A stretch of 64,000 nucleotides of DNA from an uncultured delta proteobacterium (GCA_963745835.1 CAVUZH010000013.1:704001-768000), one strand, 5' to 3'. Shown: positions 36,510-64,000, counted from the first letter of the stretch. Notes: generated by a model from the letters alone, not told the origin. Numbers and translations: made by a program.

Positions 36510-37211
36510 TCAGGCAGCAGACTGTTCGATCTTCAACTGGCGGCGCATAACTAAGGCCAAAACATCGCAGGGTTCACGGTGAGAATCGATAAATCGTCGT
36601 ATGTCGTCCAACTCTCGCGGTTGGAAATACGGCGAACATTTCGCTATCAACAGTTCGATGACGTCAGCTGGTAGTAATCCAAAAGTGACGTTATCGTCTT
36701 CGGAACAAAAGTCAGCAACCTCAATCGTCTCTGGTTCTATTACCGTGACCACATCCCTGAATAGCTGTACGAACAGATCAATTTTCTGATCGTCGAAGGC
36801 ATCAGCATACCACTTAAAATGGCATCGCATCTCTTTTTTGATTTCCCTATCTTGAATGCAGACCGTCAGACCTTCATCAACCAGCCGGCCGCGCGTCACT
36901 TCAAAGCTCAAAGGTTCGGCAATATTTGCGCGCGATTGCCGCAGAAGAAGATGGTCACGTCCATTAGTCACCTCAATGTACGCAACACCCATAGGATCAG
37001 ACATCGAGCTCTGGCAAAAATGCTTCTCGCTTGATGCTTTCAACGGTTCTAACCGATGACCTTCGTGTTGTTTCATAAAAGCACGCCAGTCGTCGCCGGG
37101 TATCTCCTCGACCTCACCGTTAACGTAGACATACTGGGGAGCTCGATCGCAGGACGTTACGTGATGCACGGCGTCACAGTTGCGACACCAGATGAATCTA
37201 TCACTAACCAT
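36510..37211 (-). CDS. Hypothetical protein, possible Zn site
   Basis: CRNC...HEGH; overlaps the stop of the upstream kinase. Confidence 0.75.
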   Translation of the reverse strand: MVSDRFIWCRNCDAVHHVTSCDRAPQYVYVNGEVEEIPGDDWRAFMKQHEGHRLEPLKASSEKHFCQSSMSDPMGVAYIEVTNGRDHLLLRQSRANIAEPLSFEVTRGRLVDEGLTVCIQDREIKKEMRCHFKWYADAFDDQKIDLFVQLFRDVVTVIEPETIEVADFCSEDDNVTFGLLPADVIELLIAKCSPYFQPRELDDIRRFIDSHREPCDVLALVMRRQLKIEQSAA

Positions 37212-38325: not shown

Positions 38326-38453
38326 GGCCGCTCCTTACGCAAAAAGTGTGCTAGATGGCTTTGTCTAAGAAAACTAAGAACTTACAGGGAAATTGGAGGC
38401 TACAGAGGTAAAACGGAAGGATTAACGGTACAAATTTGTCCAAAATTGTCGAT

Positions 38454-41754: not shown

Positions 41755-43921
41755 GAACGTGCAAGTTGCGCTCGGTCATTGCTCGAACGGGTTTCCCCGT
41801 TGGAATGTTGACAAGAAAGGAGGTTCCCTTCCCCACTTTACTTTCAACAGTAACGTATCCGCCATGCTCCTGTACAATTTGATGGGAGATAGAAAGCCCT
41901 AAACCGCTGCCTTCGTCCTTGCTGGTAAAAAACGGATCGAATATATGCTCGAGATTTTCGTTAGGGATACCGATACCGGTATCCTTAACTTCAACTTGTA
42001 CGAATGAGGGTGACTGCTGGGTAGCCTCCGGGGTGAAGATACGTGTTGAGATTGTAATTGTCCCGCCGTTGTTCATCGCCTGGATGCCGTTGAATATGAG
42101 GTTCATGAATACCTGCTTCATTTGTTCCCTGTCAATCCACACCTTGGGCAGGTTCGGGGTGAAGTCTCTTACCAATTCTACACTTTTTTCCTTCGCTTGT
42201 GTGTCTAAAATTCGCGCAATACCATCGATTACGTTATTCATGTCCTCTTGAGCAACATTCGGCCTCGAGGGTCGGGCAAAGCTCAAAAGATCCGTGATCA
42301 ACCCACAGATGCGGTCCACTTCCTTCAGGGCGAGGCTTTGGAAACCGTTACGAAACTCAGCGTCTTCGTACCGTTCTGGCAAAAGCTGGGTAAACGTGCG
42401 AATTGCCACCAACGGATTGCGAATTTCATGAGCAAGTCCTGCCGTAAGTAGCCCTAAAGAGGATAAGCGGTCCGCCCGCCGAAGCGTATCCTGCGACTGC
42501 TTCAGATTTTGGTAAAGCCGCGCGTTTTCAATTGCGACCGCCGCCTGATTAGCGAGAGTTGAAAGAAGCTCTAGATCTTCGTTCGAGTAAATCTCCTTAC
42601 CCGGTTTGTAACCGAGATTCAGAGCGCCGATCAATTTTTCCTTTGAAATTATCGGGACGCTAATCTCGGCCTCGATCTCCTCCATTCTCCTCGCAGTCAA
42701 CCTCCAGTTTAGGCTATCGCTAGCGATTTCAAGTTCTTCTCTAACGATTCCCTTTTGTACTTTTGTTAAGCTTTCAAGTAGAGGATCGTCGCGTAAGAGA
42801 AAGAACTGAGAATTTATTGCAACGCCGATGCTGGCTTTAAGGTTGAATACGCCTTTGGCTTCCTCGAGTAGAAAAAGAGACGCCTTTTCAATGCCAAGTG
42901 CCCGTCCGACCGTTCGAACCAGATTAGTGGATAAACTCTCAAGGTCCACGATCGAAACCATATCTTTACTCGAGTAGAGTAGCGTTTCCCGGTAGTTTAT
43001 CCGCTTTTGGAATAACGCTCTTTCTAGAGCTTCCTCCGTCCGAAACCGTAATTTGGGAAATAAAAACCCCACAATAATAAACAAGAGGAGTGTCGCCATC
43101 GAGAAGGTATAATTGATGTTTCCAAACGCCAACTGCTGCCCCCAAATGACCAAGATATAACAGGGAACAAGCAGCATGAATAAAAGTGATGCATAGATGA
43201 TGCTTTTTCTGATCGCAACGTTAATGTCGAGGAGGCGGTACTGCGCAATAGCATAAGCAGTAGTGGAAACATAGATGGGAATCGCATAACTTCCGTACGG
43301 AAAAAGCGGGAAAATTGTTATGTCGTAGAGATAAAGAAAATTATCGAGGCCGCCAAAATATCCAAGCAATGAGCCAAACAGGAGATATTTTATTTGGTTC
43401 TTCCGAACTCCTTCCGCCTTTAGGTATCCTAGGAAGAGAGTAGAAAGACCCCAAGCGGCACAAGCTATAAAGTAAAGGACCAGATATATGTAGCCACGAT
43501 TCGCCACCATCAAATACTCGATCCCGTATTTCGGAGCGACTTCTGAAACGAGAGTTCCATTGATACACAAGAACATCAAAGTTGCGGTGATTACATAGAG
43601 CGGAGCGACAAGAAGATTTACGGTTTTCCGCTTACGATTAGAAAAGAACTGGAGAACGAAATGGACGAACAGGGTCGGTATCAGCGTAGCACCAACATGG
43701 AGATAGCGTGCGGTAAATTCGGCTACGGACCGGTTCGCAGTAAATACATGCAATGCAAGTAAGCTACTCCACACGGTGATACTGAAGGAATAGATAGAGA
43801 ATACTCGGTAAAGGCTCGACTTGGGATCCTTCAACAGCACGAACGAACCTAGAGCGGCCGTGGTTACCGAGGTCAGGGCTGCGGAAATTCCTATATGAGC
43901 AGCGTCAGTTAAGCCGAACAT
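41732..43921 (-). CDS. Membrane sensor histidine kinase (N-terminal 7TM-type region, GAF, HisKA, HATPase)
   Basis: Multiple TMs; LANQAAVAIENARLY; AHEIRNPL; DTGIG; GSGLGL. Confidence 0.93.
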   Translation of the reverse strand: MFGLTDAAHIGISAALTSVTTAALGSFVLLKDPKSSLYRVFSIYSFSITVWSSLLALHVFTANRSVAEFTARYLHVGATLIPTLFVHFVLQFFSNRKRKTVNLLVAPLYVITATLMFLCINGTLVSEVAPKYGIEYLMVANRGYIYLVLYFIACAAWGLSTLFLGYLKAEGVRKNQIKYLLFGSLLGYFGGLDNFLYLYDITIFPLFPYGSYAIPIYVSTTAYAIAQYRLLDINVAIRKSIIYASLLFMLLVPCYILVIWGQQLAFGNINYTFSMATLLLFIIVGFLFPKLRFRTEEALERALFQKRINYRETLLYSSKDMVSIVDLESLSTNLVRTVGRALGIEKASLFLLEEAKGVFNLKASIGVAINSQFFLLRDDPLLESLTKVQKGIVREELEIASDSLNWRLTARRMEEIEAEISVPIISKEKLIGALNLGYKPGKEIYSNEDLELLSTLANQAAVAIENARLYQNLKQSQDTLRRADRLSSLGLLTAGLAHEIRNPLVAIRTFTQLLPERYEDAEFRNGFQSLALKEVDRICGLITDLLSFARPSRPNVAQEDMNNVIDGIARILDTQAKEKSVELVRDFTPNLPKVWIDREQMKQVFMNLIFNGIQAMNNGGTITISTRIFTPEATQQSPSFVQVEVKDTGIGIPNENLEHIFDPFFTSKDEGSGLGLSISHQIVQEHGGYVTVESKVGKGTSFLVNIPTGKPVRAMTERNLHVHEANLSH

Positions 43922-50370: not shown

Positions 50371-50445
50371 GGTCCCATCGTCTAGCGGTTAGGACACCGG
50401 CCTCTCACGTCGGTAACACGGGTTCGATTCCCGTTGGGACCACCA
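50371..50445 (+). tRNA. tRNA-Glu(CTC)
   Basis: GGTCCCA...CCGGC-CT-CTC-AC-GTCGG...GGTTCGATTCC...GGGACCACCA. Confidence 0.96.
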
Positions 50446-50459
50446 TATTTCCCGCGTAG

Positions 50460-51684
50460 TTAACACTCTCGTCCAAAAGGTTTCGGCAAAGGTTTCGGTT
50501 TCCTCCTCATTTGCACCTGTTTTTCCTGCTCCTGGGATCTCATAACATAGCCACGTAATAGCGCATCGCCATCGTCACGGATGTATCTCCCATAGCTCTG
50601 CTGAAGCATAGCGATGCTCGTTCCGGTTTGTTCTGAGAGCCACTTCTGATTACACCCAAGTGTTAATGCGACGCTTATATTATAAAGGTATGTCGGGCAT
50701 TATAGAAGGGTCGCGGCCTCAGCTCTAGCACCCGTAATACGTCCCCAAATTTACGACCGAACTCATTCTGGTCTATAGGTCGGCCTTGCTCATCCGTGAA
50801 AACGTAATCTTCAGCTTTTGCATGCAGCGGGAGAAGAGGTTTTAGAAGGTCAACGACATTGGGAAGTAAAGAAAATGTCCTCGCGCTTGCCAGGGTCTTA
50901 GGCGCATTCTCTTCACCTAGCGTCCTAGATCATTCGATGCTTGCCTTGGAGGCTAGTAAATCGACAACGCCCCACTTCAATGCTGCCGCTTCACTAGGTC
51001 TAGTGCCAGTGTAGAAACGGAAAAAAACAAAAGCATAAGCCCAGTGCGGTCGCTTAGTTTTATAAAACTCCAGAATCCTATCGCGCTCACCTTCCGTAAA
51101 AGGATCGGGTTCCTTCTTGCGGAGCCGAGGCCACCAGTTTTTAGGTATCTCCTTAAAAGGGTTCCGCTCGATCCGCTTTCCGGCATCACGAAACATTGGG
51201 CGCAAGGCACCATCGATGATGTTTCGAGCTGACTTCAAAGTGAGCTTGCGCTCTTCGACAAGGTGCAGGCGAAAATCCTCAATTGTTTCGACGGCTACGC
51301 TATTCAGTTCCACTTCTCCCATGAACGGAAGGATGTTTTTATTGAAGGCTTGACGGTAGTCGCGCTCAAGGCTCTTGCGCACAAACGGCGGTTTCTTCTT
51401 TTCTATCCAGCTCTCATAGTACTCGTTCACCGTCAGAGGCGTCATCTCTACTGGCTTGCTTACCTTCGGCCTAAACTGATCGGCCTTGTTGCCGTGGGGA
51501 ACCATTTGAGATAATCGAACGTCCCTGCTTCGATCTCCTCAGTGATTAGCTGCGCTCTGGCTTCCAGACGTTTTCGGTTTTCCGGTGTGTCCTTTAGCTT
51601 AGTGCCTTCAGTCGATTCCATTCCGTTCCAGTACAGGAAATAACGCAAGCGACCGTGCTGATTCGGTTTGACCCTGCAAGCCAT
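50460..51684 (-). pseudogene. Tyrosine integrase with arm-binding domain (frameshift, nonsense codon, 5-bp duplication)
   Basis: TPENRKRLE..FDYLKWFP; TGTRPSE; in-frame TGA at 50930; then PKT, YNARHT, QTGTS, SYGRY. Confidence 0.9.
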
Positions 51685-51869
51685 TAGCGCCCCCTCTTGA
51701 TGTGGTGTTCTACGATGTACCGCAACGCAAGCTCGGCGATTTTCGGAATCGGAACCTCTTCATTTTCCCATCGAGAGATCCCACGGATGCTCACATCGAT
51801 TACCCCGGACAACATTGCTTGACTGTAGCCGATCGACTCCCGGAGCTTGCGAAACTCCTTACCAGACAT
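51684..51869 (-). CDS. Small XRE-like helix-turn-helix protein
   Basis: MSGKEFRKLRESIGYSQAML...ISRWE. Confidence 0.85.
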   Translation of the reverse strand: MSGKEFRKLRESIGYSQAMLSGVIDVSIRGISRWENEEVPIPKIAELALRYIVEHHIKRGR

Positions 51870-51913
51870 ATTGTCTTTATAGACGTAATGTCTGCTTATG
51901 TCAAGGGTCTCTA

Positions 51914-52162
51914 TTACCGTCCTCCCAATTTATAGCCACGAGCCATCGGGATTGAGTCGTCCTCAAGCGCTGTACCGCTGTCCTCCCGCTCCAACCACTC
52001 AACCACAGCGCTCCATTTGAACCGTGGCCCGATACCTGAGGGGCTGAAGTAATGAACCCCCTTCCTGAACGTCCCTTCCGCCATCTTGTTCTGAATGGTC
52101 TTAGGAGAGAGCCCCAGCCGTTGAGCCAGATCTTTGATCTTGAGGTATTCTTCGGCGGCCAT
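51914..52162 (-). CDS. Excisionase/AlpA-like protein
   Basis: YLKIKDLAQRLGLSPKTIQNK..GVHYF..RFKWSAVVEWL. Confidence 0.85.
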   Translation of the reverse strand: MAAEEYLKIKDLAQRLGLSPKTIQNKMAEGTFRKGVHYFSPSGIGPRFKWSAVVEWLEREDSGTALEDDSIPMARGYKLGGR

Positions 52163-52294
52163 GATTGCTTTTACTAGACGGCGATCTCTGGCGATCAGGG
52201 GTCTATGTGCTGCTGCCTAAGCAATCTTGCTGCTCATGAGCCTGCTCCAGCAACTACCCCCGCAAGCTGCACTGCGGCATCTACTGAGCCTATT

Positions 52295-52597
52295 CTACTG
52301 CTGTGGCTCATCAGCTTGCTGCGCGTCGGTAACTACCGTGCCGCTGCGCAGCGAACGTGCCTTCTCGGCGAGCTTCGTGCGCTGTGCTTCGCTAATCTTT
52401 CGGGCCTTGCGCACAGACACCAGCCGCTTGGGCACCTCGAACGTCGCTGAGCGGTCGCTTCCCTCGATTGGCTCAAAGCCTAGCTTCAGCAGCTTGCGGT
52501 ACATGGGCTCTGATGCCGTCCAGATTGAGGCGTAGGGTTCGGCCTCGTTGAAGTTGATGATGGTTTCGCGTTCGGCTCGTGGTCCTTTGCCTCGCAT
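52295..52597 (-). CDS. Hypothetical phage-type protein
   Basis: ERETIINFNE..ASIWT; AGGAG RBS. Confidence 0.7.
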   Translation of the reverse strand: MRGKGPRAERETIINFNEAEPYASIWTASEPMYRKLLKLGFEPIEGSDRSATFEVPKRLVSVRKARKISEAQRTKLAEKARSLRSGTVVTDAQQADEPQQ

Positions 52598-53567
52598 GTA
52601 GGTCTCCTAGTCTAGTGATCCTGCGTTGATTGTTTGTGCGGTTGCCTCCGGCGAGGTCCACCCAACCACCCCACCCCAAAGGGCCGGCGCTAGTCTCCGG
52701 GCAAGTTTCCAAGATTGAATGAGTCCGTTTGTGGCGCGTTGGTTCGTTGGCAGGCTCCACCGCTGTTGGGTTAGCGACTGGCGTGACGTGTCAGTCATTG
52801 TCAGCTGATAACCAGTGTCAAACCTCGCCATACGTGCCCTCTGAAGAATATTTGGGAATATTTTGGATGGGTCTCGTTCTTGCGGTCAGAAGTTGGCATC
52901 ATGAATAAGTTGCGTGCCTTCTGCTCCAAGTACGCGGAAGATGCATTACTGGTGTTTGTTTCGATCATCATTTTCCTAGCGGCGTATTTCTTACTCACTG
53001 CTTTCTAATCAGAGCGTATAGCTCGGGATACATCTCTGATCGCACGCCCTGCTTATTTCTCACTGCTGTTTGACTGAGTCCTGATTATGCTCACCTAGCC
53101 CTTTGTCAGACCCGAGGGGCCACCGCCGCGTCACTGGCTGACATGGCATGTCAGTCAATGTCCTCTTATGGGCGTGGACAAAGATGGCCATGTCTGTTGT
53201 TTGCAGGAAATTTAGGACAGCTGGGACGGGCCGCAATTTTGCACCTGAAAGATCATTAGTCATCGGAGGTATGCCGTGGTATTAGACTCAGTTTTAAGGG
53301 CAGCAATCATTCTCGGGGTGGTAGCGTCCATGGCTCTATGGCTGTTCCTCTAGCCTAGCTACTTGGACCTAACGGAGGCAGCGCACTTGCCACCCCCGCC
53401 GATCCTTTGGCTTGCCCATCGACTGAGCGCAGCCCTTTCTCGACCGGGCACCACCCCGGCCAAGTCTTTGCGCTCGCACCCATTAAACGATCTCGGAGTG
53501 TGTGCGCATACATACTCTCTTTTCATCTTCCAATGCTCACACCCCTAAATGGTTTAAAGGGGGGTAG

Positions 53568-54814
53568 TTATGCCGCTGATTGTTGCACGGCGTGAGCTTC
53601 TGTTAACCACTTCCAGTCTATGCTGAGAGTTACTGAAGCAGGTTGCGAGGTATTCGAGTCGCCGTCTGTTAGCTCAACAATTCCTGTTGCGGCTAGTTCT
53701 TTCATCCACCCGAGCACGGTAGGCTTAGTCCGGCGCAAGACCGTGGCCGCATTTGTTGATGTGAGAGAGTCACCGCTCAGCAATAAGGCTCGCAACAGGT
53801 TGCGGCGAGTCTCGGGAATGGTGGAAAACGCAATGTGACGAATTAGGGGCATATCGTCAGTGGCGCTCACGATGGCTCTCTGATCCGCAAGGGCCGCACC
53901 CATCGCCAGCATCTTGAGTGATAGGATTATGCGGTGTGGGCCTTCAGGCGTACCGCATCGAAGACCGCCCATGTCCCCATCACCTCAACACGCCCCGCTG
54001 AAATGAGTTGCGCGTAGCGCACAAGCTCAAGCACCACGTCATCGCCGAGTAAGATCGTGCCCGGGTCAACGCTTTTCACTGGGTAGCGGCCAAAGTGAGC
54101 TTCAACGAAATCATTTACGATAGTCTGGCATTCCTTGAGGCCGGTATCGCCGTTAGCCTTTTTTGCAAACTCAACCAAGTCCTCTTCCTTGAGGTCCACC
54201 GAAACGATCTCTTAGAAGCAGATACGGTTTCCCAGTTGCGCCATGAGCTTGTAAACCACATCTGAGAACGGCGTGGTCGCGCCTATCCAGTTGAAGAGGT
54301 GCTCGGTTGTATAGCCCCGCTCACCCTGTGCACCAGATTCGGTAACATAGCCCCGGCCATCGAGCACCGAAGTCAGCACTGAGAAGTTCTTCTGCATCTC
54401 CTTGAAGTCACCCCGGAATAAAGGGCTAACCTCTTTGGTGAGCATCGTCTTATTTTTTATCTTTGGTAGCAGGTCAATCGTTGCCAGCTCGTCCTTTTTC
54501 TTATTGGCTGCATGAGATACGAAGGAGGCAGGAGTGAAGCTGTCCACACGGTGAAGGAAAGGCCGAGTGCTTGGTCGGTCGGGCATGAACACGTTGACCG
54601 AGACCGATTTGCCTTTGCCGGACGCCCCGACATACATCAACGAGAGGCAGTTCTCGCGCTCTTCCAACGAGTGGCAGGCCACCACCGCACAACCGCATTT
54701 GACTGCCATTGCGAGGTCAGCGCCATAGTGGGATTCGACCTTTGCAACGACGCGCCTGAGGCTAACGTCGAGAGTATGATTATCGGTGATGGTCATTGTG
54801 TTTTCCTTCCTCAT
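53568..54814 (-). pseudogene. P-loop ATPase (replication helicase-like) with C-terminal wHTH, interrupted
   Basis: Walker A GASGKGKS; in-frame TAA at 54212-54214; frameshift near 53970; C-terminal helix-turn-helix-like segment. Confidence 0.7.
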
Positions 54815-54974
54815 CCACCAGGCTCAGTAGTGCTCTTATTGTTTGCGGGTCACGCTTAAACATCGGTTCCCAGTGATCCACAGGTAACAATCCGCGCCTC
54901 GCCAGCTCTCGAATCGTTGAAGGCCGATGTGTCGTCAATAGCTGCGAGACTTGCTCGCTTGAAATCAGATTCAT
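54780..54974 (-). CDS. Small HTH-like protein
   Basis: ISSEQVSQLL...STIRELARRGLLP; AAGGG RBS. Confidence 0.55.
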   Translation of the reverse strand: MNLISSEQVSQLLTTHRPSTIRELARRGLLPVDHWEPMFKRDPQTIRALLSLVDEEGKHNDHHR

Positions 54975-55219
54975 CTGCTCCCTTTCAATCGGTTGTAACG
55001 TTCACTGCGAACGTCAGTGTTGATGTTTGTGGGGCTGACTTTATAGCCGCGCTAGGTCTGTCCCGCGAGGAAAGCACCCTATCCATAAGTCGCCAAATAA
55101 GTCGCGTGTTGCCATGTGACATAATCTATCATTTTAACCGTCATATGGCGAATTTTTGGGCGTATGTTGCGAGACTTTTGTCTCCGTGATAGGATCGCCC
55201 GATGCACTGGAACTGACAT

Positions 55220-56014
55220 ATGACGCGGTCGGATGATTTGGCGGGTTATATTAAAAAGGTTGAATGGACGATTTGGCTATATCACGTAGACCTTAACTCG
55301 CTTACGGATGGAGGTTGGCTAAAGCTCAAGGAAGAGCTTTATGACTTTTTTACAGCCGATCTTGAGTGGACATTTGCATCAAAGGCCAAACCGTTGACGA
55401 AGGAAGATGTAGTGGCCCTAGCGCGTTTGATAGAAAGCTCTGAGATTCGATTCGACAATTATCCCGATATTGAAGATGCTTTGGAGGAGCATGACTATGC
55501 TCGCCTATGGGCATTGGATGAACGTGATAAAGACGAGTGGGTGAAAGTCGTGGACGCTAAAACTGTTGAACGTACACAAGCCGCTTTGAAGGCAATACTT
55601 GATGACGCGCTAACGCAGACCAGTTTTTTACACCCGGATGAGGATAGTGATTTCTATTACCACTACCATCCCTCACATAGTACTGAAGACGATTCCTTGC
55701 CCGACATTGCGATTGCTCGACTTCGGTCATACTTAGTCGCGGCTGGCATTGAACCGGGCCAGATCAGAACGTGCGATGAGTGTAAAACGATTTTCTTGGC
55801 GAAACGTAAACCGACTCCGAAAAAGAAAAGCTATTGTTCCGCTAGATGCGCTCAGCTATGTGCAACCAGGGCTTACCGCAAACGCAACCAAGCCAAGTTA
55901 AAGACGAAAGAGCGAGAACGCAGTCATCACCGCTATGTGGCGAAGCAGCGCAAGAAGCACCCGAACGCCAAAGTCAAAAGGATTCCACGGGCGAGGTCGG
56001 TAGACACGTTGTAA
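55220..56014 (+). CDS. Hypothetical protein with C-terminal CGNR-like zinc finger and basic tail
   Basis: IRTCDECKTIF...YCSARC...RAYRKR. Confidence 0.75.
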   Translation: MTRSDDLAGYIKKVEWTIWLYHVDLNSLTDGGWLKLKEELYDFFTADLEWTFASKAKPLTKEDVVALARLIESSEIRFDNYPDIEDALEEHDYARLWALDERDKDEWVKVVDAKTVERTQAALKAILDDALTQTSFLHPDEDSDFYYHYHPSHSTEDDSLPDIAIARLRSYLVAAGIEPGQIRTCDECKTIFLAKRKPTPKKKSYCSARCAQLCATRAYRKRNQAKLKTKERERSHHRYVAKQRKKHPNAKVKRIPRARSVDTL

Positions 56015-56040
56015 TTGCTCGTGCCGATGTAAAAACCGGC

Positions 56041-57557
56041 TGTTGTAGTTCAGCCAATGTGTCACCTTAACTGCTCAGCGAAAATGTCACCCCTGAGTGG
56101 TAGTGTGGTAAGGTTTCAGTTCGATTGTGAGATCTCCATCAGGGTTGATTTTGGGGGTACCTAGGTGCCCGCCAGTCCGAGAACGTGCGTTATAAGCGAA
56201 ATACGGCGGTGGTTTTTTAGATTGTTTTCTCGAATCGAGGAGTTTTCTGTCTTTGACCGAGCGATAATGCCGGCGCAAGGTTCTTAATGGTCCTTGCACC
56301 GCAGGAGGAGGGCTCTCCAAGAGCAGCTCGTTTTTGCAGTACACGCGCCAACGGCCATCGAGCAATTGACGGATCTCGACACGGGCTCTGGCATATCCTC
56401 GACGATGCGGTCCCGCCGGGATGTCGAGGATCATTCCTGAAAGCCGCACTGCATTATCATTGCCGACGGTGGCTTCATAGAGAAAACTGCAGGTCCGATC
56501 GACATCGACTGTTTTGGGCAGAGGACGCCAGGCTGGTTGGCTTTCTCTGGCCGGTTTGGCAAAGCGGGTGTTGAAATCGGTTTTGAACGGGCCGTTCACA
56601 AAGAGCGTCGCTTGTTGGGGGCTGGTGATCCGTGCCAGCCTGAGCTCCTGGACCAACCGATCCTGCAAAGTATTAAACAGCCGCTCCACACGTCCCTTGG
56701 CTTGAGGCGAGAGTGCAAAGATCGGCTTTATACCGAAAGCCAAAAGCGCCTGAGTCACTTGAGTGGGCGTTTGTTGCCCGGCCAGCTGCTCTTGCACGGT
56801 CCAGTGATCGTCGTTACGACGGAAGATCCCATGGCGATCCATGTACATGGCCAAGGGAATGCCGTTCTCGAGCACGATCTGTCTGAGGCAGATCAAATAG
56901 CTCTGGGCATCCTCCTGGCGGGCAAACACGCCGCACACCAACTTCCCCGTGGCATCATCGATCGCCGCCATCAAACTCCACTCGCCGAACTTCTCTCCAA
57001 ACCAGCGGTGAGGACTCCCGTCCCACAACAACAGAGATCCTTCCTGGGCTTTGCGCTCGCGGCGCTTGTAGTGGCGCTTGACACCGCGCTTTCGCACCGC
57101 AGCGATCCCGGCCTCACGCAACACCCGGCGCACCGTGGCGCGCGATACCTCGAGCTTTTCTTTCTCCTTGAGCTTCTCGGTCAGGTGCGTGTCGTTGAGT
57201 CCCTGGTAGCGTCCACGTGCCAATGCGATCACCTTCTGCATTCTTTGCGATGCCGTCTTGTTCCAGGCCGCTTTGCCGCGATTGCCATGCATTAGACCTT
57301 CGCTACCTCGCTCTTTTATCTTTCGCCGCAGCCGTTTCATCTGGCGCGCCGAGATCTCCAAAAGCTTCGCCCCCTTGCCCACGCTCTCTCGCCCCTCTAA
57401 CGTCAATCGAACCACATGCAGTCGATGTAATTCTCTCTGACTCACCCTCATCTCCCTTTCGCTCATCCCATCTCCTCCTTCTCGGAGAAGATCCTACCCG
57501 AAGGGGTGTCAGAATCGCTGAACAGTTTTGGGGTGACATTTTCGCTGAACTACCACA
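56041..57557 (-). mobile_element. IS1202-family (ISNCY) insertion sequence with 16-bp target duplication
   Basis: TIRs TGTTGTAGTTCAGCCAATGTGTCACC / GGTGACATTTTCGCTGAACTACCACA; cgatgtaaaaaccggc at 56025-56040 and 57558-57573. Confidence 0.93.
56087..57466 (-). CDS. DDE transposase (ISNCY/IS1202)
   Basis: HGNRG, WDGSPHRW, IDDATG, YMDRHGIF, SPQAKGRVERLFNTLQDRL. Confidence 0.95.
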   Translation of the reverse strand: MSEREMRVSQRELHRLHVVRLTLEGRESVGKGAKLLEISARQMKRLRRKIKERGSEGLMHGNRGKAAWNKTASQRMQKVIALARGRYQGLNDTHLTEKLKEKEKLEVSRATVRRVLREAGIAAVRKRGVKRHYKRRERKAQEGSLLLWDGSPHRWFGEKFGEWSLMAAIDDATGKLVCGVFARQEDAQSYLICLRQIVLENGIPLAMYMDRHGIFRRNDDHWTVQEQLAGQQTPTQVTQALLAFGIKPIFALSPQAKGRVERLFNTLQDRLVQELRLARITSPQQATLFVNGPFKTDFNTRFAKPARESQPAWRPLPKTVDVDRTCSFLYEATVGNDNAVRLSGMILDIPAGPHRRGYARARVEIRQLLDGRWRVYCKNELLLESPPPAVQGPLRTLRRHYRSVKDRKLLDSRKQSKKPPPYFAYNARSRTGGHLGTPKINPDGDLTIELKPYHTTTQG

Positions 57558-57707
57558 CGATGTAAAAACCGGCTTGACAGCGAGATCGGCCCGATATTAC
57601 ATTGCCGCCCTGAATCGGAACGTGCCAAGCACATCAATTCGCAGAACATAGATCGATCATTGTGGAGGGTGCGAGATGCAGTTTGGTAGCGAGCTAGTCG
57701 CAATCTT

Positions 57708-58150
57708 GTGGTCCACTATCTTATCATGTTAATGCCGGAAGTGGCGCTTGCCGCAGCCATTACCTATTACCTCGATCTTGGCGCGTCCGGCTTCGTAATG
57801 GTGTTACCCATAATTCTTCTGGTACAGGTAGGCTTATGGATAAAAAACTCTCTGTTTGCGTGGGCTAGGTTCCTGCTTTTTGCTCGTAGGCCCTTGGCTG
57901 CTGCTGCCGCTTAATATTTTAGAACGGCACGATTTCCCGAACCAAATGATTACGAAGCAACACCCGAGGATTATCTATCACGGACGAAGGACGATGAGAG
58001 TCAGAGAATCGGTGTTCGAGTTGATGCGGCTGCAAGTCTCTCGGAACTGAGTACCCTCAGGACCTTTGGCTTTTTGCAAGCAAGTATGCGTGTGAGGATG
58101 CTTTACGAAGATGCATTAGACATTCATAAGGCATCATTCAAAGATGGAAA
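57708..58150 (+). pseudogene. Frameshifted membrane protein remnant
   Basis: Two TM segments followed by broken frames. Confidence 0.35.
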
Positions 58151-58412
58151 AACTGACTGGAAAATCTGCTGTCAGGATAGCTATCAATCCCACATGCTGT
58201 CCTCGACGTTTCTCAGTCCTGCTTCGCGCCACACACTGGGCAATGTGCAAACCACCGTCGAATGCGGGATCGACACCGCCGGCAAACATTCGTTCGACCA
58301 CGCCTGACGAAAAGCACGGAGGTGATGACAAGGAGACCGGCGACTAAACTTCCGAACATCTTTTATCCAACCATGCTCGCGCAACCAGAACCGTAAGCAA
58401 GCGACTATCTCC

Positions 58413-58640
58413 TCAGGTTGGCACCCTCCAGGCACTTCTTAGGTCTACCCATGCTCTGGCCAGTGATAACCCATCTGCCTCCGCTTCTTCTTTTGTTTTG
58501 AATATCGTGCCCTCGATCCGTTGTAGCTCGATAACAGATCCCGTTCGCCCTGCCTTGCAGACTGACCCACGCGACTGACACCCCTGCATATACACCGGGA
58601 TCGAGCAGCCAGAGATCATGTAGCCTTTGTACTTAAGCAT
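58413..58640 (-). CDS. Small hypothetical protein
   Basis: MLKYKGYMI...FKTKEEAEADGLSLARAWVD. Confidence 0.65.
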   Translation of the reverse strand: MLKYKGYMISGCSIPVYMQGCQSRGSVCKAGRTGSVIELQRIEGTIFKTKEEAEADGLSLARAWVDLRSAWRVPT

Positions 58641-58675
58641 GATTTTCCAACACCTATGGGCGGGACAAAATCCAT

Positions 58676-58921
58676 TTAAGAGCTTCCATCCTGCGGGCTA
58701 AACGAGCGGGCATCTAGCGGTAACATCACTAGGTAGTCACTCGGGTCGATGTATTGTTTGAGTTTTTGCCAGACAGCTTGCGGCGGCTCGTTTGTTTTGA
58801 TCGTCCAATTCGACTGCGATAACCTAGCCCATCCGTAGCTTGTGATGACCTTATAGAAACCATCGTAATCGGCTTTTGACGTCTCCCGGTTGTATTTGTA
58901 GGTAATGTGCAGGACAGCCAT
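58676..58921 (-). CDS. Small Cas2/VapD-like ferredoxin-fold protein
   Basis: MAVLHITY..DYDGFYKVITSYGWARLSQSNWTI..LKQYIDPSD pattern. Confidence 0.55.
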   Translation of the reverse strand: MAVLHITYKYNRETSKADYDGFYKVITSYGWARLSQSNWTIKTNEPPQAVWQKLKQYIDPSDYLVMLPLDARSFSPQDGSS

Positions 58922-59327
58922 AGCGGCGCGCATCATATCACAATCAGCCGAGTTGGGGGCGCAAAATATAGCTACGTCCTCGGCTATCCTCGGCTGTTTT
59001 ATCGTGGCGATTTCGCCGGCCTTGATCGACCCGCATCGCTTGTGCTGTTAACCGCGCCCTCGCTGCGCGGCGACAACCCGCCTTCCTTTGGCGACCTGTC
59101 AAAGGCGCTGCGCTGGCGAGGCCCATAAAACAACAGGGAGAAGCCAGCAAGTCTGCGTTTCGGTCCGGCTGTGGACTGTAGGCGAACGCACTAATCGCCA
59201 CAACGCCTGAGCCGTTTTACGCCTACGCAATATGGAGTCGGGGCATTGAAATATGCTTGCCAGCTATTGCTAGTTGCCCTACCCTATCACATGCAGGAGC
59301 CAACATGACCGCTGGAGGTTTTTGTAT

Positions 59328-59510
59328 ATGAAATCCGTGTTTTCGCAGCTTGTGTATGCTCCTTCAGACCAGCAGCGGGGGTCTGCCATCGACAAACATC
59401 AAGAAATGGAGAACCCGCCTTCAGTTTTGGTATGGCTCGCCGGGTGGGCTGTGATCATTGGATTGTGCCTCCTGTTTTGGTTGGGAGTGTACAGAGTGGT
59501 CATATCTTAG
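59328..59510 (+). CDS. Small protein with C-terminal TM helix
   Basis: GGAGG RBS; hydrophobic C-terminus. Confidence 0.5.
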   Translation: MKSVFSQLVYAPSDQQRGSAIDKHQEMENPPSVLVWLAGWAVIIGLCLLFWLGVYRVVIS

Positions 59511-59662
59511 CGGGCGCGATCACCGGAAGCCGCACGCATTTCATCAGCACTGGTTGATCCTGTCGGCGCGTTTAAGTCACTCGCAGTGTTTTCCCTCTAT
59601 TTGCCCGCACAGCATGTCGCTAGGTTGCGAGCAAGGCCGTTCACGCCTGCTAAATTCAAAAC

Positions 59663-59878
59663 CTACGAGTTCCACTCCGCTTCGGAGATTCCATACGTCC
59701 GCAGCGGGTGCGATAGCTTGTCGCGCCAACTACCATAAGCCACATCTCTGGCTCCCTGCAGTATGAGCTTGCGTATTAACGCGAGGATCAAATCCGCATG
59801 ATCATCTCGGCCCTCCAGCGGCCTGTACTTTCTCCATAATTCGCCGATGTCGGTGTCCTGCAGTTCTGGTTTCGCCAT
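59663..59878 (-). CDS. Small hypothetical protein
   Basis: ORF with plausible helical composition. Confidence 0.5.
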   Translation of the reverse strand: MAKPELQDTDIGELWRKYRPLEGRDDHADLILALIRKLILQGARDVAYGSWRDKLSHPLRTYGISEAEWNS

Positions 59879-59957
59879 CGGGCGACAGTACTGAACTTAT
59901 TTTCAGTATGCAATCCGCGCCATTGAGATCACAGTGCGACAGAGTTATTCTATGTAG

Positions 59958-60107
59958 ATGGCCGGCTACCTCGCCAGAAACTGTCCTATGTGCCGCAACT
60001 ACTTTGGGGTGACAATCGCCAAGCCGAACGGCAGCGGATACCAGCCAATCCATGGACGCTGCGCGACCTGCGGGTATGAAATCAGCTGGGCGCTGCTCAG
60101 TTCCTGA
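59958..60107 (+). CDS. 49-aa zinc-ribbon microprotein (below ORF-track cutoff)
   Basis: MAGYLARNCPMCRNYFGVTIAKPNGSGYQPIHGRCATCGYEISWALLSS; two CxxC. Confidence 0.6.
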   Translation: MAGYLARNCPMCRNYFGVTIAKPNGSGYQPIHGRCATCGYEISWALLSS

Positions 60108-60422
60108 CCCTTACCACCCATACGGAACACCGATAAAGCCGCATCAGCGGAAAGGCCTCAGTTTGTGGAGTCGAAGTATGCGCGAACCGTGCAGCAGCTA
60201 CAGAAGGGCAGGGCAACTGTCCAGCTCTGACGCGGAAACCAAATCACAATCAAGTTGACACAATGCTGTCGTATCAGATACCTTCCGACGAAAATACTGA
60301 TCAGACGCTGGTCGTTGTTGGTGCACCGCGAATGTCGGCTGCAAAGGCCGGTCTGGTGGTCTGAGGGGTGTTAATGAGAGCAATTTCTTACCACTGCCTG
60401 CATAAGTCACGAGGCATTCGCA

Positions 60423-61982
60423 ATGGTTGTTGAATCTGGCGGTTCCGGACGTGCCGGCTCGTTGAAAGAGCAGGCGTGGGTCCGAGCATCTTTTGGCCCA
60501 CAATTACCCCCGATTCTTGACCTCAATCACGCGAAGCTCGACCAACTCGCGGCTCACCCGTTTATAGGTCGCCCTCTTGCAGCGAAGCTGATCAAGCACC
60601 GAAGATCGAGCCGCATTTTCACTCCTCACGATCTTTTCCACGCAGGCTTGATAGATAGAGGCCAGTTACGAAATCTCGAAAGCTTCGCGTTCGGCGCGAC
60701 TCGACTGCGTCCTATGCTCGAGAGCATCCAAATTGCCGGGCCGCGTCTATATGTCAACGAGGAGTTCGCGCTCCGGTTCTCATGGCTCAAATCGATGGTT
60801 GCTTTGCCAGAAATTCTGTCCATTGCCGTGCGCTTCCCCTCCGGGCGTGCCTCGGAAATCCACATCCGGCTATCGCAGAGAGAAGCGGAATCGGGCGAGC
60901 TTGTGGTCCCCGGTTTTATCTCTGGGGAGTCCGGCGAGTTCTATGTCCTCGCCACTCTACGGGATTCGGCGGGCGCAGTATCGCGCCAAAGTGCGATCTT
61001 TTCCGTCTTCACGCATAACCCTGTTCAGATTTTCGTCACTCCACAATATTCGACTCAGTCTGACAGCGCAGGGGCGCCCAAGTACAACTTCGCTGAAAAC
61101 CGCTGGTACTGTTACGCCGACGTTCGGTGGGTGAATGGTGAATCGCGCAGCGTCAATCTCGGACGCACCGTGGATGTTCTAGCCACCGACGCCGGAACCG
61201 GTACAGTCGCGAATTTCAATTTCAGTCTCAGTGGCGACATCGTCATACCGGCGTTCTCCACGGTTTATGGAAACTGGTACACTTATCACGCCAGCGGCGG
61301 CATTTTCGACGAGTTCAACGCCAAAGGTGATTTAACCTTCCGCTATTCCATGAACGGCTCTGGCTTCAACCCAAGTCGTACTCAGGTCTGGCGCGTCATG
61401 CGGACGATTGGCTACAACATTATTCGCGTCGGCGACTTCACCGCGACGGAACGCAGCGAATACCAAAGAGCAGCTGCACAGGTCGCGTCCGGAATTTTTC
61501 AGTCCCGGGACATGACCGTTTACGGCACCGAACTGTATCGCATCGAAGGTACGCCGGACATGGATGCCGACAAAACGCGCTGGCGTTTCATTGACGATGA
61601 CGGCGAATTTGATGCGATGGCTAATAAGTATTCCGTATCCAACTGGTACATGGACGTCTTTATGGTTGAAGGCTATTGGGGCGGTTTCGGTGCGTCTTAT
61701 GTCAACGCTCCCACCGATAAAAACGGAACTCACAGCGGCATCGTCATCCGGCGAGACGGCGACACTGTGAATCTGGGACAGACCTTCGCGCATGAAGGAG
61801 GGCACCATCTCGGTCTTGAGCATGCTGACGAAGATGATGGGTGTGCAGACACCGATCCTTCATCGCCCAACATTTCCGATAACTTCATTTTTTCTTCCTC
61901 TCGTCGTGACAGCGCCATCATCACCGGCTGCCAGATCAACAAAATGAGACAACACGGATTCGTGCGATCTATGACGCCGTAA
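60423..61982 (+). CDS. HhH (ComEA-like) domain + beta-rich middle + metzincin-like zinc metalloprotease
   Basis: LDLNHAKLDQLAAHPFIGRPLAAKLIKHR; AHEGGHHLGLEH; no signal peptide evident. Confidence 0.8.
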   Translation: MVVESGGSGRAGSLKEQAWVRASFGPQLPPILDLNHAKLDQLAAHPFIGRPLAAKLIKHRRSSRIFTPHDLFHAGLIDRGQLRNLESFAFGATRLRPMLESIQIAGPRLYVNEEFALRFSWLKSMVALPEILSIAVRFPSGRASEIHIRLSQREAESGELVVPGFISGESGEFYVLATLRDSAGAVSRQSAIFSVFTHNPVQIFVTPQYSTQSDSAGAPKYNFAENRWYCYADVRWVNGESRSVNLGRTVDVLATDAGTGTVANFNFSLSGDIVIPAFSTVYGNWYTYHASGGIFDEFNAKGDLTFRYSMNGSGFNPSRTQVWRVMRTIGYNIIRVGDFTATERSEYQRAAAQVASGIFQSRDMTVYGTELYRIEGTPDMDADKTRWRFIDDDGEFDAMANKYSVSNWYMDVFMVEGYWGGFGASYVNAPTDKNGTHSGIVIRRDGDTVNLGQTFAHEGGHHLGLEHADEDDGCADTDPSSPNISDNFIFSSSRRDSAIITGCQINKMRQHGFVRSMTP

Positions 61983-61996
61983 TAGGGGAAACGACC

Positions 61997-62731
61997 ATGG
62001 CCCGAAAACAAATCTCGAAAGGGCGTGTGCCCGCGAAATATCCGTCAGTCCCAGATAGCGAGTCCAAACCCGGCAATTACAATGAGCCTGCGCCACCCGC
62101 GGCGGCAGATAGTATTCCGTCCCCTCACTTCAACCTTCTCCCTACCGAGTCTAAGGCCGACCTCCGGATTCGCATCGAGCAGCTCCTACTCCGGCGCGAT
62201 TCGATCGGGGCGGACGACTGGGTCGCGCTTGGGGATCCGGGTCGTGCGTTTCTTGTCGAACTGCTCGACGATCAGGCCATGCGATCGCACGAGGCGCTTT
62301 TCCACCGACTGATAGCGGTGCTGGGCCAACTTTCCGTTAAGCGCAGTGTGGCTCCCCTGGCTGCTCTGCTGGCGGCGTCATCTGAAACCGGCCTCACCAA
62401 AGCGTATGCCGCCACCGCGCTCGGCCACATCGGCGGGCCAAGTGCGCTGGAAGCCCTTGCCGGCGCGCTCACCGCGAAAGACGACATGGTGCGGCGGCAG
62501 GTGGCCAAAGCACTCGGCAACATGGATCGCGTGGCCGTCATTCCGCATCTTCGGAAATTGCAACAGGACAAGTCCGTCGCAGTATCGGAAGTCGCTGCAG
62601 AAGCCCTCGCGCGCTGGGAAAAGAAACTCAATCAACGTGTTGGAGCGACTAAAAAAGCGCCTACTCGTAAAGCTTCCCGCAAGAAAGTCATGCCGGCTGT
62701 TGAACGTGGCAGCTCGCGGCGACGAGGTTAA
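61997..62731 (+). CDS. HEAT-repeat (PBS lyase-like) protein
   Basis: AATALGHIG, VRRQVAKALG, VSEVAAEAL; GGGG RBS 14 nt after the protease stop. Confidence 0.85.
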   Translation: MARKQISKGRVPAKYPSVPDSESKPGNYNEPAPPAAADSIPSPHFNLLPTESKADLRIRIEQLLLRRDSIGADDWVALGDPGRAFLVELLDDQAMRSHEALFHRLIAVLGQLSVKRSVAPLAALLAASSETGLTKAYAATALGHIGGPSALEALAGALTAKDDMVRRQVAKALGNMDRVAVIPHLRKLQQDKSVAVSEVAAEALARWEKKLNQRVGATKKAPTRKASRKKVMPAVERGSSRRRG

Positions 62732-62945
62732 CGCTGAAACCGCGACTGTTTTCATTGCTCTCAACTCGTTTTTCATCGTATCGGGTGAAAGCCTAGACTG
62801 GAAGGTTGGATGGCGGAAGGCCACGGCATGTCTCGTAGCTTCAGGACCTTCGTCGCAGAACACAGCATTTTGAGCCTTAGCCCCTCATTGTCCGGCGCAA
62901 CCAGGCCTTCCGTAAGTGAGATAAGCCCGGGTTTGAGGGACACCT

Positions 62946-63230
62946 AAAGATGCCGACGGCGAGGTGCTCCACAGCTTTACGATCATAACCACCGTGCCTA
63001 ATGCCCTGCTGCGACGTATTCACAGCCGTATGCCTGTGATCTTGATGCGCTGCAGGCACAGCAATGGCTAGATCCTAGACTCAGTACCCGGCCTGCGGAT
63101 ATCGCCGCCGTGCTTGCCCCATTCCCATCTGAACAGATGCAAGCCCATGACGTATCCCCGCTCGTCAATAAGCCAGAATATGACAGGGCGGACTGCCATA
63201 CCCCTGTTGCGGACCGACAGTTCCGGCTAG
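62946..63230 (+). pseudogene. SOS response-associated peptidase (SRAP/YedK) C-terminal remnant
   Basis: DGEVLHSFTIITTVPNALLRRIHSRMPVIL / QWLDP / MQAHDVSPLVNKPEYD; N-terminal half absent. Confidence 0.8.
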
Positions 63231-63311
63231 TCTAACAGGTGTGCGCGGAAGTCTGAAGGATGATCCTTCTAGCGGTGCAGAGTGAAAGTTAGTAGTCGCA
63301 CCCGACGCGTT

Positions 63312-63686
63312 TCAGAGTTCCGATTGCCCTCCGTTACTAAGCACCTTCTGAATCTTCGATAATAGCTGGTCTAACGAAAGTGGCTTACTGAGGCATGGCA
63401 CGCCGAGTTTTTGAATAGCTTCCAGATACTCAGACATATTGGCGGTAATTAGGAAAACAGGAGTAACTGGTAATGTGGAGAGAATATGCTTCGCAAGAGC
63501 TACACCGTCCATTCGAGGCATCTTAATGTCTGAAAGCACAAGGTCGAATCGGCACTGCCCCAAAAGTCCCATAGCCTCCACACCGTCTTTTGCCCCTGCC
63601 GTTTCATAGCCTTCGCGGTTTAAAAAGTACCGTAAGATTCTTAGACTCGCAGGCTCATCTTCTACAACCAAAATCTTCTGACTCAT
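63312..63686 (-). CDS. Single-domain response regulator
   Basis: KILVVEDE, SDIKMPRMDG, ITA, KP. Confidence 0.92.
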   Translation of the reverse strand: MSQKILVVEDEPASLRILRYFLNREGYETAGAKDGVEAMGLLGQCRFDLVLSDIKMPRMDGVALAKHILSTLPVTPVFLITANMSEYLEAIQKLGVPCLSKPLSLDQLLSKIQKVLSNGGQSEL

Positions 63687-64000
63687 TTCGGCTCGCCCAA
63701 ACAACGAGCATGACGTATGGCACCAAGCAACATCTTACAAAAGGACAATGGCAAGACTGCCGCTTAGCCGGGGTAATTACCTGTTTTTCTATGGCAAAGT
63801 CAACTATTATTAATTAAACTAATTGGTTGTTATTGTCATTTCTTGGCATTTCATGGTAGTTCTCTCCGCGTGTCGCTTCAACAAGTCGAGATCATTCTGG
63901 AAAGGGGCGAGGCACAATGTTTATTAGACCACGCAGCCAAGACTTCCATTGCATGGGCCACACTGAAAGCAACTATAAAACCATGGATCGTTAGCGGTAT

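Follow-up and report, generated by a model that had tools for sequence, protein, structure and literature searches.

A gene pair in the genome of an uncultured delta proteobacterium appears to encode a zinc endopeptidase of the metzincin type together with a HEAT-repeat protein that is predicted to cover its active site. The pair lies within a stretch of 64,000 nucleotides (GCA_963745835.1 CAVUZH010000013.1:704001-768000), which is analysed here at its full length and called the window. Its first gene encodes the peptidase (P0001) with a helix-hairpin-helix (HhH) head, two β-sandwich domains and an adamalysin-like catalytic domain, and its second gene encodes the HEAT-repeat partner (P0002). 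We propose, with about even confidence, that both proteins form a latent, probably cytoplasmic two-subunit zinc endopeptidase in which the HEAT protein is the inhibitor and serves as a prodomain in trans, and that the two genes constitute a mobile module. The pairing is conserved across the superfamily of related peptidases and neither protein has been studied so far. A search of the literature in full text, with supplementary files outside its range, found neither a description of such a HEAT/metzincin pair nor a characterised relative. Within this range the family can still be called undescribed, as it had been in a preliminary description of this DNA made from the sequence alone.

The proposal is carried by results that are established computationally, namely the identity of the domains, the conservation of the pairing, the existence of natural fusions, the prediction of a complex and the signs of purifying selection. 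The domain order of the peptidase is given in Table 1. An AlphaFold2 model of the whole chain, computed from an alignment of 36 sequences that covers the whole peptidase (A1), reaches a predicted local distance difference test score (pLDDT) of 91.2 and a predicted template modelling score (pTM) of 0.80. In this model the chain begins with a short strand, continues with a helical head (helices between residues 14 and 88) and two β-sandwiches with approximate limits at 98-207 and 220-324, and ends in an α/β catalytic domain comprising residues 327-519. The β-rich middle noticed in the preliminary description thereby takes the shape of two β-sandwiches, which Foldseek relates to fibronectin type III (FnIII)-like and immunoglobulin (Ig)-like domains. 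With the whole 519-residue model Foldseek returned generic tandem FnIII/Ig-like matches only (RbmA, transglutaminase barrels, MG/macroglobulin domains). Since these generic matches dominated the search, a separate model of the catalytic domain was made and compared by itself. Modelled on an alignment of 44 catalytic-domain sequences (A4) it reached a pLDDT of 95.5 and a pTM of 0.92, agrees with the catalytic fold of metzincins (five-stranded sheet, active-site helix, C-terminal helix) and had, with E <= 0.001 as the limit, 154 matches in the Protein Data Bank (PDB). The best 50 of these are without exception chains of adamalysin, ADAM, ADAMTS or fragilysin, with template modelling scores of 0.53-0.63 over about 200 columns and with 12-18% identity. 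Among the Pfam families Reprolysin_4 matches P0001 with 28.3 bits against a cut-off of 22 bits (residues 422-477), and a profile of the peptidase family finds a snake-venom metalloproteinase in the PDB (3gbo, E 3.5e-7, profile positions 351-477). Reprolysin_3, Reprolysin_5, M10, M43 and M66 all stay under their Pfam cut-offs in P0001, an NCBIfam scan of the pair added nothing specific, and the ESM Atlas yielded only hypothetical and reprolysin/M43-like clusters with best feature scores of 0.82, which count as no more than a lead.

The head of the peptidase is matched by the same family profile to the HhH domains of EEPD1 (9yi2, E 8.1e-10) and ComEA (2duy, E 1.6e-5; 8dss, E 5.5e-5), and Pfam HHH_3 is above its cut-off in relatives (42.1 bits in P0148, 45.9 bits in L009). 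For both reasons the ComEA-like HhH domain that had been suggested before is considered real at the level of the family, as judged from profile comparison, though the copy in P0001 alone is sub-threshold. The resemblance to the basic ComEA and EEPD1 domains extends by profile over approximately 60-80 residues. In contrast with them, the head is fused to a protease and its hairpin glycines, if measured against the GIG consensus of HhH hairpins, are partly replaced (PFIGR, AGLID). Inspection of the P0001 sequence revealed no hydrophobic N-terminal leader, which agrees with the former statement that a signal peptide is missing, and the same holds by inspection for the long forms and for the eight short relatives that were printed. 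Cysteines occur in P0001 only at positions 230, 474 and 503 and thus none is N-terminal.

The zinc-binding motif HEGGHHLGLEH and the sequence NFIF at the Met-turn position, both read already in the preliminary description, were reproduced and could be placed at defined residues of the catalytic domain (Table 1). H457, E458, H461, G464 and H467 are kept in at least 90% of the 36 rows of A1 and H, E and H of the motif are invariant in A4; all zinc ligands and the catalytic glutamate are intact in the peptidase. The Met-turn methionine is missing from P0001, which has isoleucine at the aligned position, with the turn itself apparently retained. All 25 intact core-clade rows of A1 read NF[IL][FY], and the same column in the distant relatives is occupied by N-x-M in eight of ten, by leucine in one and is not alignable in another. 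An insert of 18 residues (DDGC...ISD) between the third histidine and the Met-turn is specific to the core clade. Of the two cysteines in its GC[AS]DT sequence and in ITGCQ, 22 rows have both and three rows (P0055, P0112, P0115) have neither; the sequence P0123, which is frameshifted around the Met-turn region, was excluded from these core-clade counts. By analogy with other metzincins the isoleucine does not argue for a dead enzyme, because their Met-to-Leu and Met-to-Ile mutants are described, in a part of the respective report (PMC1266349), as stable enzymes with reduced or little changed activity.

The second protein of the pair is assigned by Pfam to HEAT_2 (52 bits, cut-off 27.7) and HEAT_PBS (31.1 bits, cut-off 20.9). 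Its core is by profile of the PBS-lyase or alphaRep type, with matches to alphaRep and HEAT chains in the PDB, and Pfam reveals neither a DNA-binding nor a repressor domain in it. It had been described before as a HEAT-repeat protein with basic disordered tails. Of this the HEAT repeats and the basic C-tail (12 lysines and arginines, one aspartate or glutamate, isoelectric point (pI) 12.0) hold, but the tails are not featureless. In the alignment of the partner family (A2) the N-tail residues P12, P16, S17, E30, P31, D38 and P41 are near-invariant within the consensus LPVKYPSVPD..ES.P.RYNEP, and the C-tail shows the conserved PAxER ending. A word-index search retrieved 66 partner homologues whose identity declines from 81% to approximately 40% and then falls abruptly to generic HEAT proteins. 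In each of the five carrier genomes searched the partner is present as a single copy and at the pair locus only.

Adjacency of both genes was followed in a scan with one genome per species, in which 49 pattern matches led to six close loci with 62-86% identity. They are labelled Verrucomicrobiae, Dongiaceae, Actinomycetes, Hydrogenedentales and (twice) Acidobacteriota and represent five phylum-level groups. The HEAT gene is located directly downstream of the peptidase gene in all six. Across the groups only these two genes are common, with the exceptions of the synteny between the two Acidobacteriota loci and of one weak match between L003 and L004 (35% over 117 residues, open reading frames (ORFs) at different positions); opposite-strand shadow ORFs of the two genes were not counted as shared. 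At the DNA level the similarity between the window and locus L002 begins exactly at the start codon at position 60423 and stops at 62694. For the superfamily, hidden Markov models derived from A1 and A2 were run on the 1786 stop-to-stop ORFs of all collected loci. A peptidase match with E < 1e-15 is found in 29 loci, 26 of which possess at least 300 bp of downstream sequence (the window copy L001 and the duplicate L032 were removed ahead of this count). A HEAT-model ORF on the same strand abuts or overlaps the end of the peptidase ORF in 25 of the 26, L019 being the exception, and the 29 HEAT-model matches among the 1786 ORFs all lie at a pair and none elsewhere. Pfam HEAT_2 is above its cut-off in five of six distant partners scanned (that of L033 is below) and is confirmed also in the partners of L010 and L011. 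The metagenome scan gave mostly short contigs and is usable for adjacency, not for wider context. The pairing first seen in the window is therefore a conserved one, in the close loci as well as in the superfamily.

Some relatives carry both components in a single chain. An exhaustive search of 1.84 billion sequences resulted in 168 clusters at E <= 1e-3, for which 150 cluster representatives are listed. Natural fusions account for nine of the 150 listed representatives (709-804 residues), and in these the partner model is located N-terminally, ahead of the sandwiches and the catalytic domain. In P0225 the partner model lies C-terminal to the peptidase with a weaker E of 6.8e-5, and P0130 is a short entry that resembles a read-through of the gene junction. 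Among the ten relatives scanned first with Pfam, five contain HEAT_2. In the fused proteins YNE can be recognised by eye at the very N-terminus, and the HEAT core is followed by a basic segment. Because these two features are retained, partner and enzyme seem to have been joined end to end in these sequences, with the HhH domain replaced. Adjacency, the single copy in five genomes and these fusions together speak for the HEAT protein as a dedicated partner of the peptidase. In the linker of fused relatives a GG[RK]D sequence is present that resembles the GG[SA]GR motif of P0001.

A complex of the two proteins was modelled with A1 and A2 as inputs. The three runs gave values of 0.87, 0.87 and 0.88 for the interaction score ipSAE (interaction prediction score from aligned errors) and the controls 0.00, 0.00 and 0.39; 58 of 80 solved complexes, as against 2 of 110 mismatched pairs, attain the mark applied to this score, a calibration which is only rough with own alignments. 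At least 83% of the contacts are common to the three runs and the partner has a pLDDT of at least 82. The interface comprises 256-284 confident contacts and covers the HEAT core and both sandwiches. Helix 52-70 of the partner docks on β-sandwich 1 (peptidase residues 130-133 and 180-186), and the contacts with the lowest error are those between these two peptidase segments and partner residues 54-58. HEAT-core residues 133 and 168 are in contact with peptidase residues 416 and 389, respectively, and the partner C-tail at 228-237 (including 231-235) contacts residues 334, 372-373 and 402-403. On the peptidase side the interface includes the active-site cleft (443-447, 450, 453-454, H457, E458, H461, H467 and 491-494), and on the partner side residues 14-47 of the N-tail belong to it. 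By elimination the N-tail would be the segment that occupies the cleft, the model output carrying no segment-to-cleft assignment. The partner profile matches 35 PDB sequences, whose names mention no metallopeptidase complex, so that a score resulting from the memory of a solved structure is unlikely. The complex prediction, which had been recommended together with the preliminary description, supports binding with 0.87 against 0.39 for the best control. From the three roles offered there for the HEAT protein, those of inhibitor or substrate are favoured, and that of a plain adaptor loses ground with the zinc ligands in the interface.

Full-length homologues of the peptidase are few. The word-index search, in which 7999 candidates were scored, retrieved 121, nearly all with 516-534 residues, and their source names include Nocardia, Actinocorallia, Allosphingosinicella and Pyrinomonadaceae. 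The full-length form occurs in none of 400 other genomes of the phylum to which the window belongs, where one partial short-type match was found, and in none of 400 other genomes of the class of genome G403, where there were four short-type matches. As far as can be judged from these sequences, the family is rare, patchy and horizontally transferred.

When the 150 listed representatives are sorted by the region that matches the A1 model, 82 contain the catalytic region only (proteins of approximately 200-260 residues), 15 belong to the full HhH type, 23 are fragments and nine remain unclassed. In a further 20 the sandwiches and the catalytic domain are combined with another N-terminus; nine of these are the HEAT fusions, and P0143 possesses a TIG domain. 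The short catalytic-only type probably represents the ancestral state of the system and its more frequent variant. Eight printed short relatives (P0171, P0176, P0180, P0193, P0195, P0201, P0208 and P0224), with lengths of about 230-260 residues, have an N-terminal helix motif, and their common N-terminal sequence reads M.(S/T)LR..A.CL. A cysteine pair in GPCDK and HCF is peculiar to the short catalytic-only forms and missing from the long ones, and at the short-form loci L028 and L033-L036 the HEAT partners are longer (about 330-410 residues). P0129 (845 residues) comprises HhH, sandwiches and catalytic domain and in addition a C-terminal array of about six repeats of approximately 55 residues (DLVVFHIDNP...YRIGWDLD) without a Pfam match; this array may be a β-propeller that replaces or supplements the HEAT partner. 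The cluster representative P0128 (236 residues) agrees with P0001 at 99% identity over residues 1-101 and departs from it afterwards; it is a copy, truncated or frameshifted, from a genome or assembly that is nearly identical. Judged from this variety of architectures, the HhH domain appears as one of several interchangeable N-terminal modules and the HEAT partner as the constant of the system.

Synonymous substitution (dS) amounts to at least 1.2 or is not computable in all pairs; it is saturated or not computable in 8 of 15 pairs of peptidase genes and likewise in 8 of 15 pairs of partner genes. Nonsynonymous substitution (dN) is 0.09-0.24 for the peptidase and 0.21-0.49, that is about twice as much, for the partner. 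The ratio of dN to dS (omega) is 0.04-0.17 for the peptidase where it can be computed, values which are only rough on account of the saturated or non-computable pairs. Since synonymous sites are saturated and the dN of the peptidase is nevertheless low, the transfers are old and the peptidase is tightly constrained over its whole length by strong purifying selection.

How the pair might work we infer as follows, and this concerns inhibition and cytoplasmic location as much as DNA binding, trigger and substrate. The HEAT protein would bind the peptidase 1:1, with its first helix clamping β-sandwich 1, its HEAT core resting on the catalytic domain, its C-terminal PAxER added onto the catalytic β-sheet and its N-tail (YPSVPD...YNEP) crossing the active-site cleft. 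In this position it would act as an in-trans prodomain or antitoxin and the enzyme would stay off until the partner is removed, cleaved or displaced. The HhH head may bind DNA, as is suggested by its basic composition (pI 11.5), and together with the basic tail of the partner it would direct the complex to DNA or to a different polyanion. Release might be coupled to nucleic acid by the head or by this tail, the head being then one of several interchangeable targeting modules.

A number of observations weigh against this proposal. The HhH head of P0001 itself attains only 20 bits with HHH_3 (residues 32-66), which is below the Pfam cut-off of 27. Most relatives lack the HhH domain and others carry TIG-like or fused HEAT N-termini or none, which weakens the idea of nucleic-acid sensing. 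The list of interface residues does not resolve which partner segment contacts the zinc site, inhibition being thus derived from the model, and the modelled picture would look the same if the partner were a substrate or contributed as a subunit to the formation of the cleft. The probably cytoplasmic location is based on inspection of the sequence; FnIII/Ig-like, TIG-like and β-propeller-like accessory domains and co-varying cysteine pairs are more typical of exported proteins, and the HhH domain of ComEA itself works outside the cytoplasm. Finally, in the two Acidobacteriota loci L006 (7942-10253) and L007 (7965-10312) both genes are split over several frames, which is either an assembly error or a decay of the module in this lineage.

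The predicted masking of the active site would be expected also for a toxin and its immunity protein. In such a case the peptidase would leave the cell by a route independent of a signal peptide and reach competitors or the environment, its HhH domain would bind extracellular DNA, and the HEAT protein would protect the producer by plugging the active site. The order of the genes, toxin followed by a small binder, is typical of such pairs, and the FnIII/Ig-like domains, the TIG domain of P0143, the repeats of P0129 and the co-varying cysteine pairs have an extracellular appearance. HEAT-repeat immunity proteins are moreover described for other toxin types of polymorphic toxin systems in a part of the relevant survey (PMC3482391). 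We consider this explanation improbable, however, as inspection and Pfam reveal neither a signal peptide nor a trafficking domain on the peptidase, the partner likewise has no leader, and no secretion component is among the 25 neighbour Pfam families listed from a total of 55. The module is found in lineages with one membrane (Actinomycetes including Nocardia) and with two (Verrucomicrobiae, Acidobacteriota), fusions of HEAT protein and peptidase would deliver a toxin that is already neutralised, and the peptidase is slow-evolving and not diversifying. Purifying selection on the whole peptidase, which is unlike that of typical sensor or toxin genes, speaks also against the anti-phage role contemplated in the preliminary description, for instance in a system of the abortive-infection type in which the HEAT repeats or the HhH domain would sense a phage protein or phage DNA and free a protease that destroys host or phage proteins. 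The patchy and horizontally transferred occurrence, the location on a genomic island, the two-gene layout with a repeat-protein partner and the latent effector would suit such a role. Comparison with PADLOC-DB 2.0 revealed no model matching P0001 (E <= 1) or five further family peptidases (E <= 0.01), and the partners show only generic HEAT matches to candidate models (HEAT-ARM_XIII, 4.8e-6), which are weak and due to the repeat itself. The 47 neighbour ORFs of the six loci and the window match 33 PADLOC families at E <= 1e-5, but the 25 of these that are listed have one member each and are mostly kinase-type PD-T4-6 models. The 25 neighbour Pfam families mentioned above are largely of housekeeping type (SAICAR synthetase, sigma-54, major facilitator superfamily transporter, pyridoxal phosphate enzymes, hydrolases, TPR/AAA_16 and one protein kinase). 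With tblastn no copy was found in 50,697 phage records and none in 72,556 plasmid records, and two scans of viral contigs (with a protein query and with the A1 alignment) revealed no relatives. A defence role thus receives little encouragement and is judged unlikely, the context being known from seven loci with long flanks, which are too few for enrichment statistics.

A further possibility is that the HEAT protein is the dedicated substrate of the peptidase and is cut in its conserved N- or C-tail, releasing an active peptide or an activated HEAT protein. The tails contain short and strongly conserved linear motifs that are retained in fused forms, and tails and zinc ligands are both within the interface. 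There are also precedents, as Listeria Mtz cleaves Tim according to a part of the source (PMC8235301) and zincin peptidases process FxSxx-COOH precursors according to a section of another (PMC7159879). The interface with the HEAT core and both sandwiches is nevertheless larger than a substrate needs, and the sequences show no sign of a released peptide, such as a conserved leader joined to a variable core. We therefore give this explanation a small chance as a full account. It is compatible with the proposed latent enzyme, which could be activated by a cut in the tail. The removal of DNA-protein crosslinks by an analogue of SPRTN or Wss1, which had also been raised in the beginning, finds its only argument in the combination of an HhH domain with a zinc protease. 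Neither a SprT-like nor a Wss1-like or WLM match was obtained with Pfam (E <= 1) and the fold is adamalysin-like. The patchy, horizontally transferred distribution, with the full-length form in 0 of 400 genomes of either taxon, is too sporadic for a repair function, and the HhH domain is missing from most relatives. A repair protease is hardly conceivable on these grounds.

The limits of both genes and the spacing of 14 bp between them, which contains a GGGGA sequence resembling a ribosome-binding site, were reproduced as first reported (Table 1). Sequencing runs that contain this stretch originate from soil and rhizosphere. Four metatranscriptome libraries of three studies contain eight read-length contigs that agree exactly with the window and cover parts of both genes, and the gene parts left uncovered in these four RNA libraries carry no information. 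One RNA-library contig of 215 bases (61908-62122), identical to the window, bridges the gene junction. It gives a weak hint that the pair is transcribed as one unit, DNA carry-over in the RNA library being possible, and to this extent the former designation as an operon has gained some support. Scanning for promoters and terminators resulted in counts not above those of shuffled sequence.

Table 1. Features of the peptidase-HEAT gene pair and of the surrounding island (positions refer to the window unless another sequence is named)
Feature	Position	Strand	Basis
Peptidase gene (P0001, 519 residues), HhH / double β-sandwich / metzincin	60423..61982	+	ORF
N-terminal strand, P0001 residues 5-11, conserved GG[SA]GR	60435-60455	+	AlphaFold2 model
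HhH domain, about residues 25-96, ComEA/EEPD1-like, basic (pI 11.5)	60495..60710	+	profile matches
Two β-sandwich (FnIII/Ig-like) domains, about residues 97-325	60711..61397	+	AlphaFold2 secondary structure, Foldseek
Catalytic domain, residues 326-519, adamalysin/fragilysin-like metzincin	61398..61979	+	fold, Pfam, profile
Zinc-binding motif HEGGHHLGLEH, residues 457-467 (H457, E458, H461, H467)	61791..61823	+	sequence, conservation
NFIF, residues 487-490, Met-turn position with Ile for Met	61881..61892	+	alignment A1
Intergenic spacer, 14 bp, TAGGGGAAACGACC, with GGGGA ribosome-binding-like site	61983..61996	+	sequence
HEAT-repeat partner gene (P0002, 244 residues)	61997..62731	+	ORF; Pfam HEAT_2
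Partner N-tail, residues 1-50, YPSVPD...YNEP...D..P motifs	61997..62146	+	conservation in alignment A2; interface
Partner basic C-tail, residues 213-244, ending in conserved PAxER	62633..62728	+	A2, composition; interface
attL, last 26 bases (3' end) of tRNA-Glu	50420..50445	+	exact 26-bp repeat
Truncated tyrosine-integrase gene	50930..51505	-	Phage_int_SAM_3 and first 56 positions only of Phage_integrase
Transposase-like gene (HTH domains)	56087..57466	-	weak HTH_28, HTH_Tnp_Tc3_2, HTH_32
Receiver-only response regulator in island	63312-63704		
attR, outside the window, 19.7 kb downstream of attL	L029 6099-6124 = G000:C13:774099-774124		exact 26-bp repeat

The pair is part of a genomic island, as had been suspected when it was called island cargo. 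The end of a tRNA-Glu gene is repeated exactly 19.7 kb downstream and a truncated integrase gene and two transposase-like genes are found between the repeats. The island comprises 50420-64000 of the window and positions 1-6124 of the sequence L029 (together G000:C13:754420-774124), and no tRNA gene is predicted at attR. Its boundary was set by the att repeat; the contig of G291, a genome of the same family, stops just past the gene for glutamyl-tRNA synthetase (GluRS). The part beyond the window contains an IS4-type DDE transposase (DUF4372) and an S1/P1 nuclease (L029 5095-5784), and some island ORFs have no Pfam match at all (e.g., 54212-54814, 55220-56014 and L029 3600-4427). The flanks are formed by the genes for glutaminyl-tRNA synthetase (GlnRS) and GluRS and by tRNAs on one side and by MetH on the other, GluRS and MetH being core genes. 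In the window a run of signalling genes occupies the minus strand at 37204-43921 and encodes a 7TM-GAF histidine kinase, a sigma-54-type AAA+/HisKA protein, an NtrC-type activator and a receiver-histidine kinase hybrid; the combination of a sigma-54-type AAA+ domain with HisKA is unusual.

In comparison with known enzymes, the peptidase shares with the adamalysins/reprolysins (M12B) and with fragilysin the motif HExxHxxGxxH, the overall fold and the match to Reprolysin_4. It differs from adamalysins by the apparent absence of a signal peptide (by inspection) and by having neither an N-terminal prodomain nor a cysteine switch. Further differences are the isoleucine in the Met-turn, the identity of only 12-18%, the 18-residue insert of the core clade and the HhH head and two β-sandwiches that precede the catalytic domain. 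Adamalysins have aspartate after the third histidine, a position that is occupied by alanine in P0001. Metzincin zymogens possess N-terminal prosegments with an aspartate or cysteine switch. The HEAT module of the fused relatives, with its YNE sequence, sits likewise N-terminally at the place of a prodomain, whereas the putative prodomain of the window pair is the product of a separate downstream gene in which E30 and D21 are no more than candidates for a zinc-switch residue.

By analogy, the nearest kind of system appears to be bacterial gene pairs of a metzincin and an adjacent inhibitor. Serralysin AprA and its inhibitor AprI, which is a β-barrel, are encoded in this manner. In a part of the pertinent report (PMC4334185) the toxicity of Mep72 of P. 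aeruginosa in E. coli is described as being relieved by the neighbouring gene bamI, with both proteins forming a complex, and Listeria Mtz, in the portion of the source cited above (PMC8235301), cleaves its TIMP-like partner Tim. In all three systems, as in the window, a metzincin is encoded next to a small binding protein, and the complex reported there for Mep72 and BamI corresponds to the tight, cleft-covering complex predicted here. In contrast with the window pair, in which neither protein has a leader, Mep72, Mtz and AprA are secreted enzymes with exported partners of unrelated folds. The HEAT partner of the PBS-lyase type, with two docking tails and with fusions to the enzyme in relatives, is also unlike the partners in these three systems. 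Type II toxin-antitoxin systems resemble the window pair in their two-gene layout, in the active-site-masking complex predicted for it and in the patchy, island-borne distribution. They differ in that here the enzyme gene comes first, the proteins are large and the partner has no DNA-binding or repressor domain by Pfam.

A more extended view, which is possible but doubtful, would be that of an intracellular class of adamalysin-like peptidases with a HEAT prodomain in trans or fused and with interchangeable heads (HhH, TIG-like or none) that direct the complex to various polymers of the cell. In the HhH form nucleic acid would release the partner and thereby set proteolysis free, so that the pair would operate as a new kind of toxin-antitoxin or abortive-infection module across phyla. 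Metzincins are known from textbooks as secreted enzymes that are made as zymogens with a covalent prosegment and have an invariant Met-turn methionine. The peptidase family described here breaks three of these habits, having no export signal by inspection, isoleucine in the Met-turn and a cleft that is predicted to be covered by a separate HEAT protein. Its DNA-binding-type head is a concrete candidate for the trigger. If the latency model is true, the pair would allow the switching of a protease by a repeat protein to be studied in a simple system of two components, and it would add a protease-based module to the mobile two-gene systems of soil bacteria.

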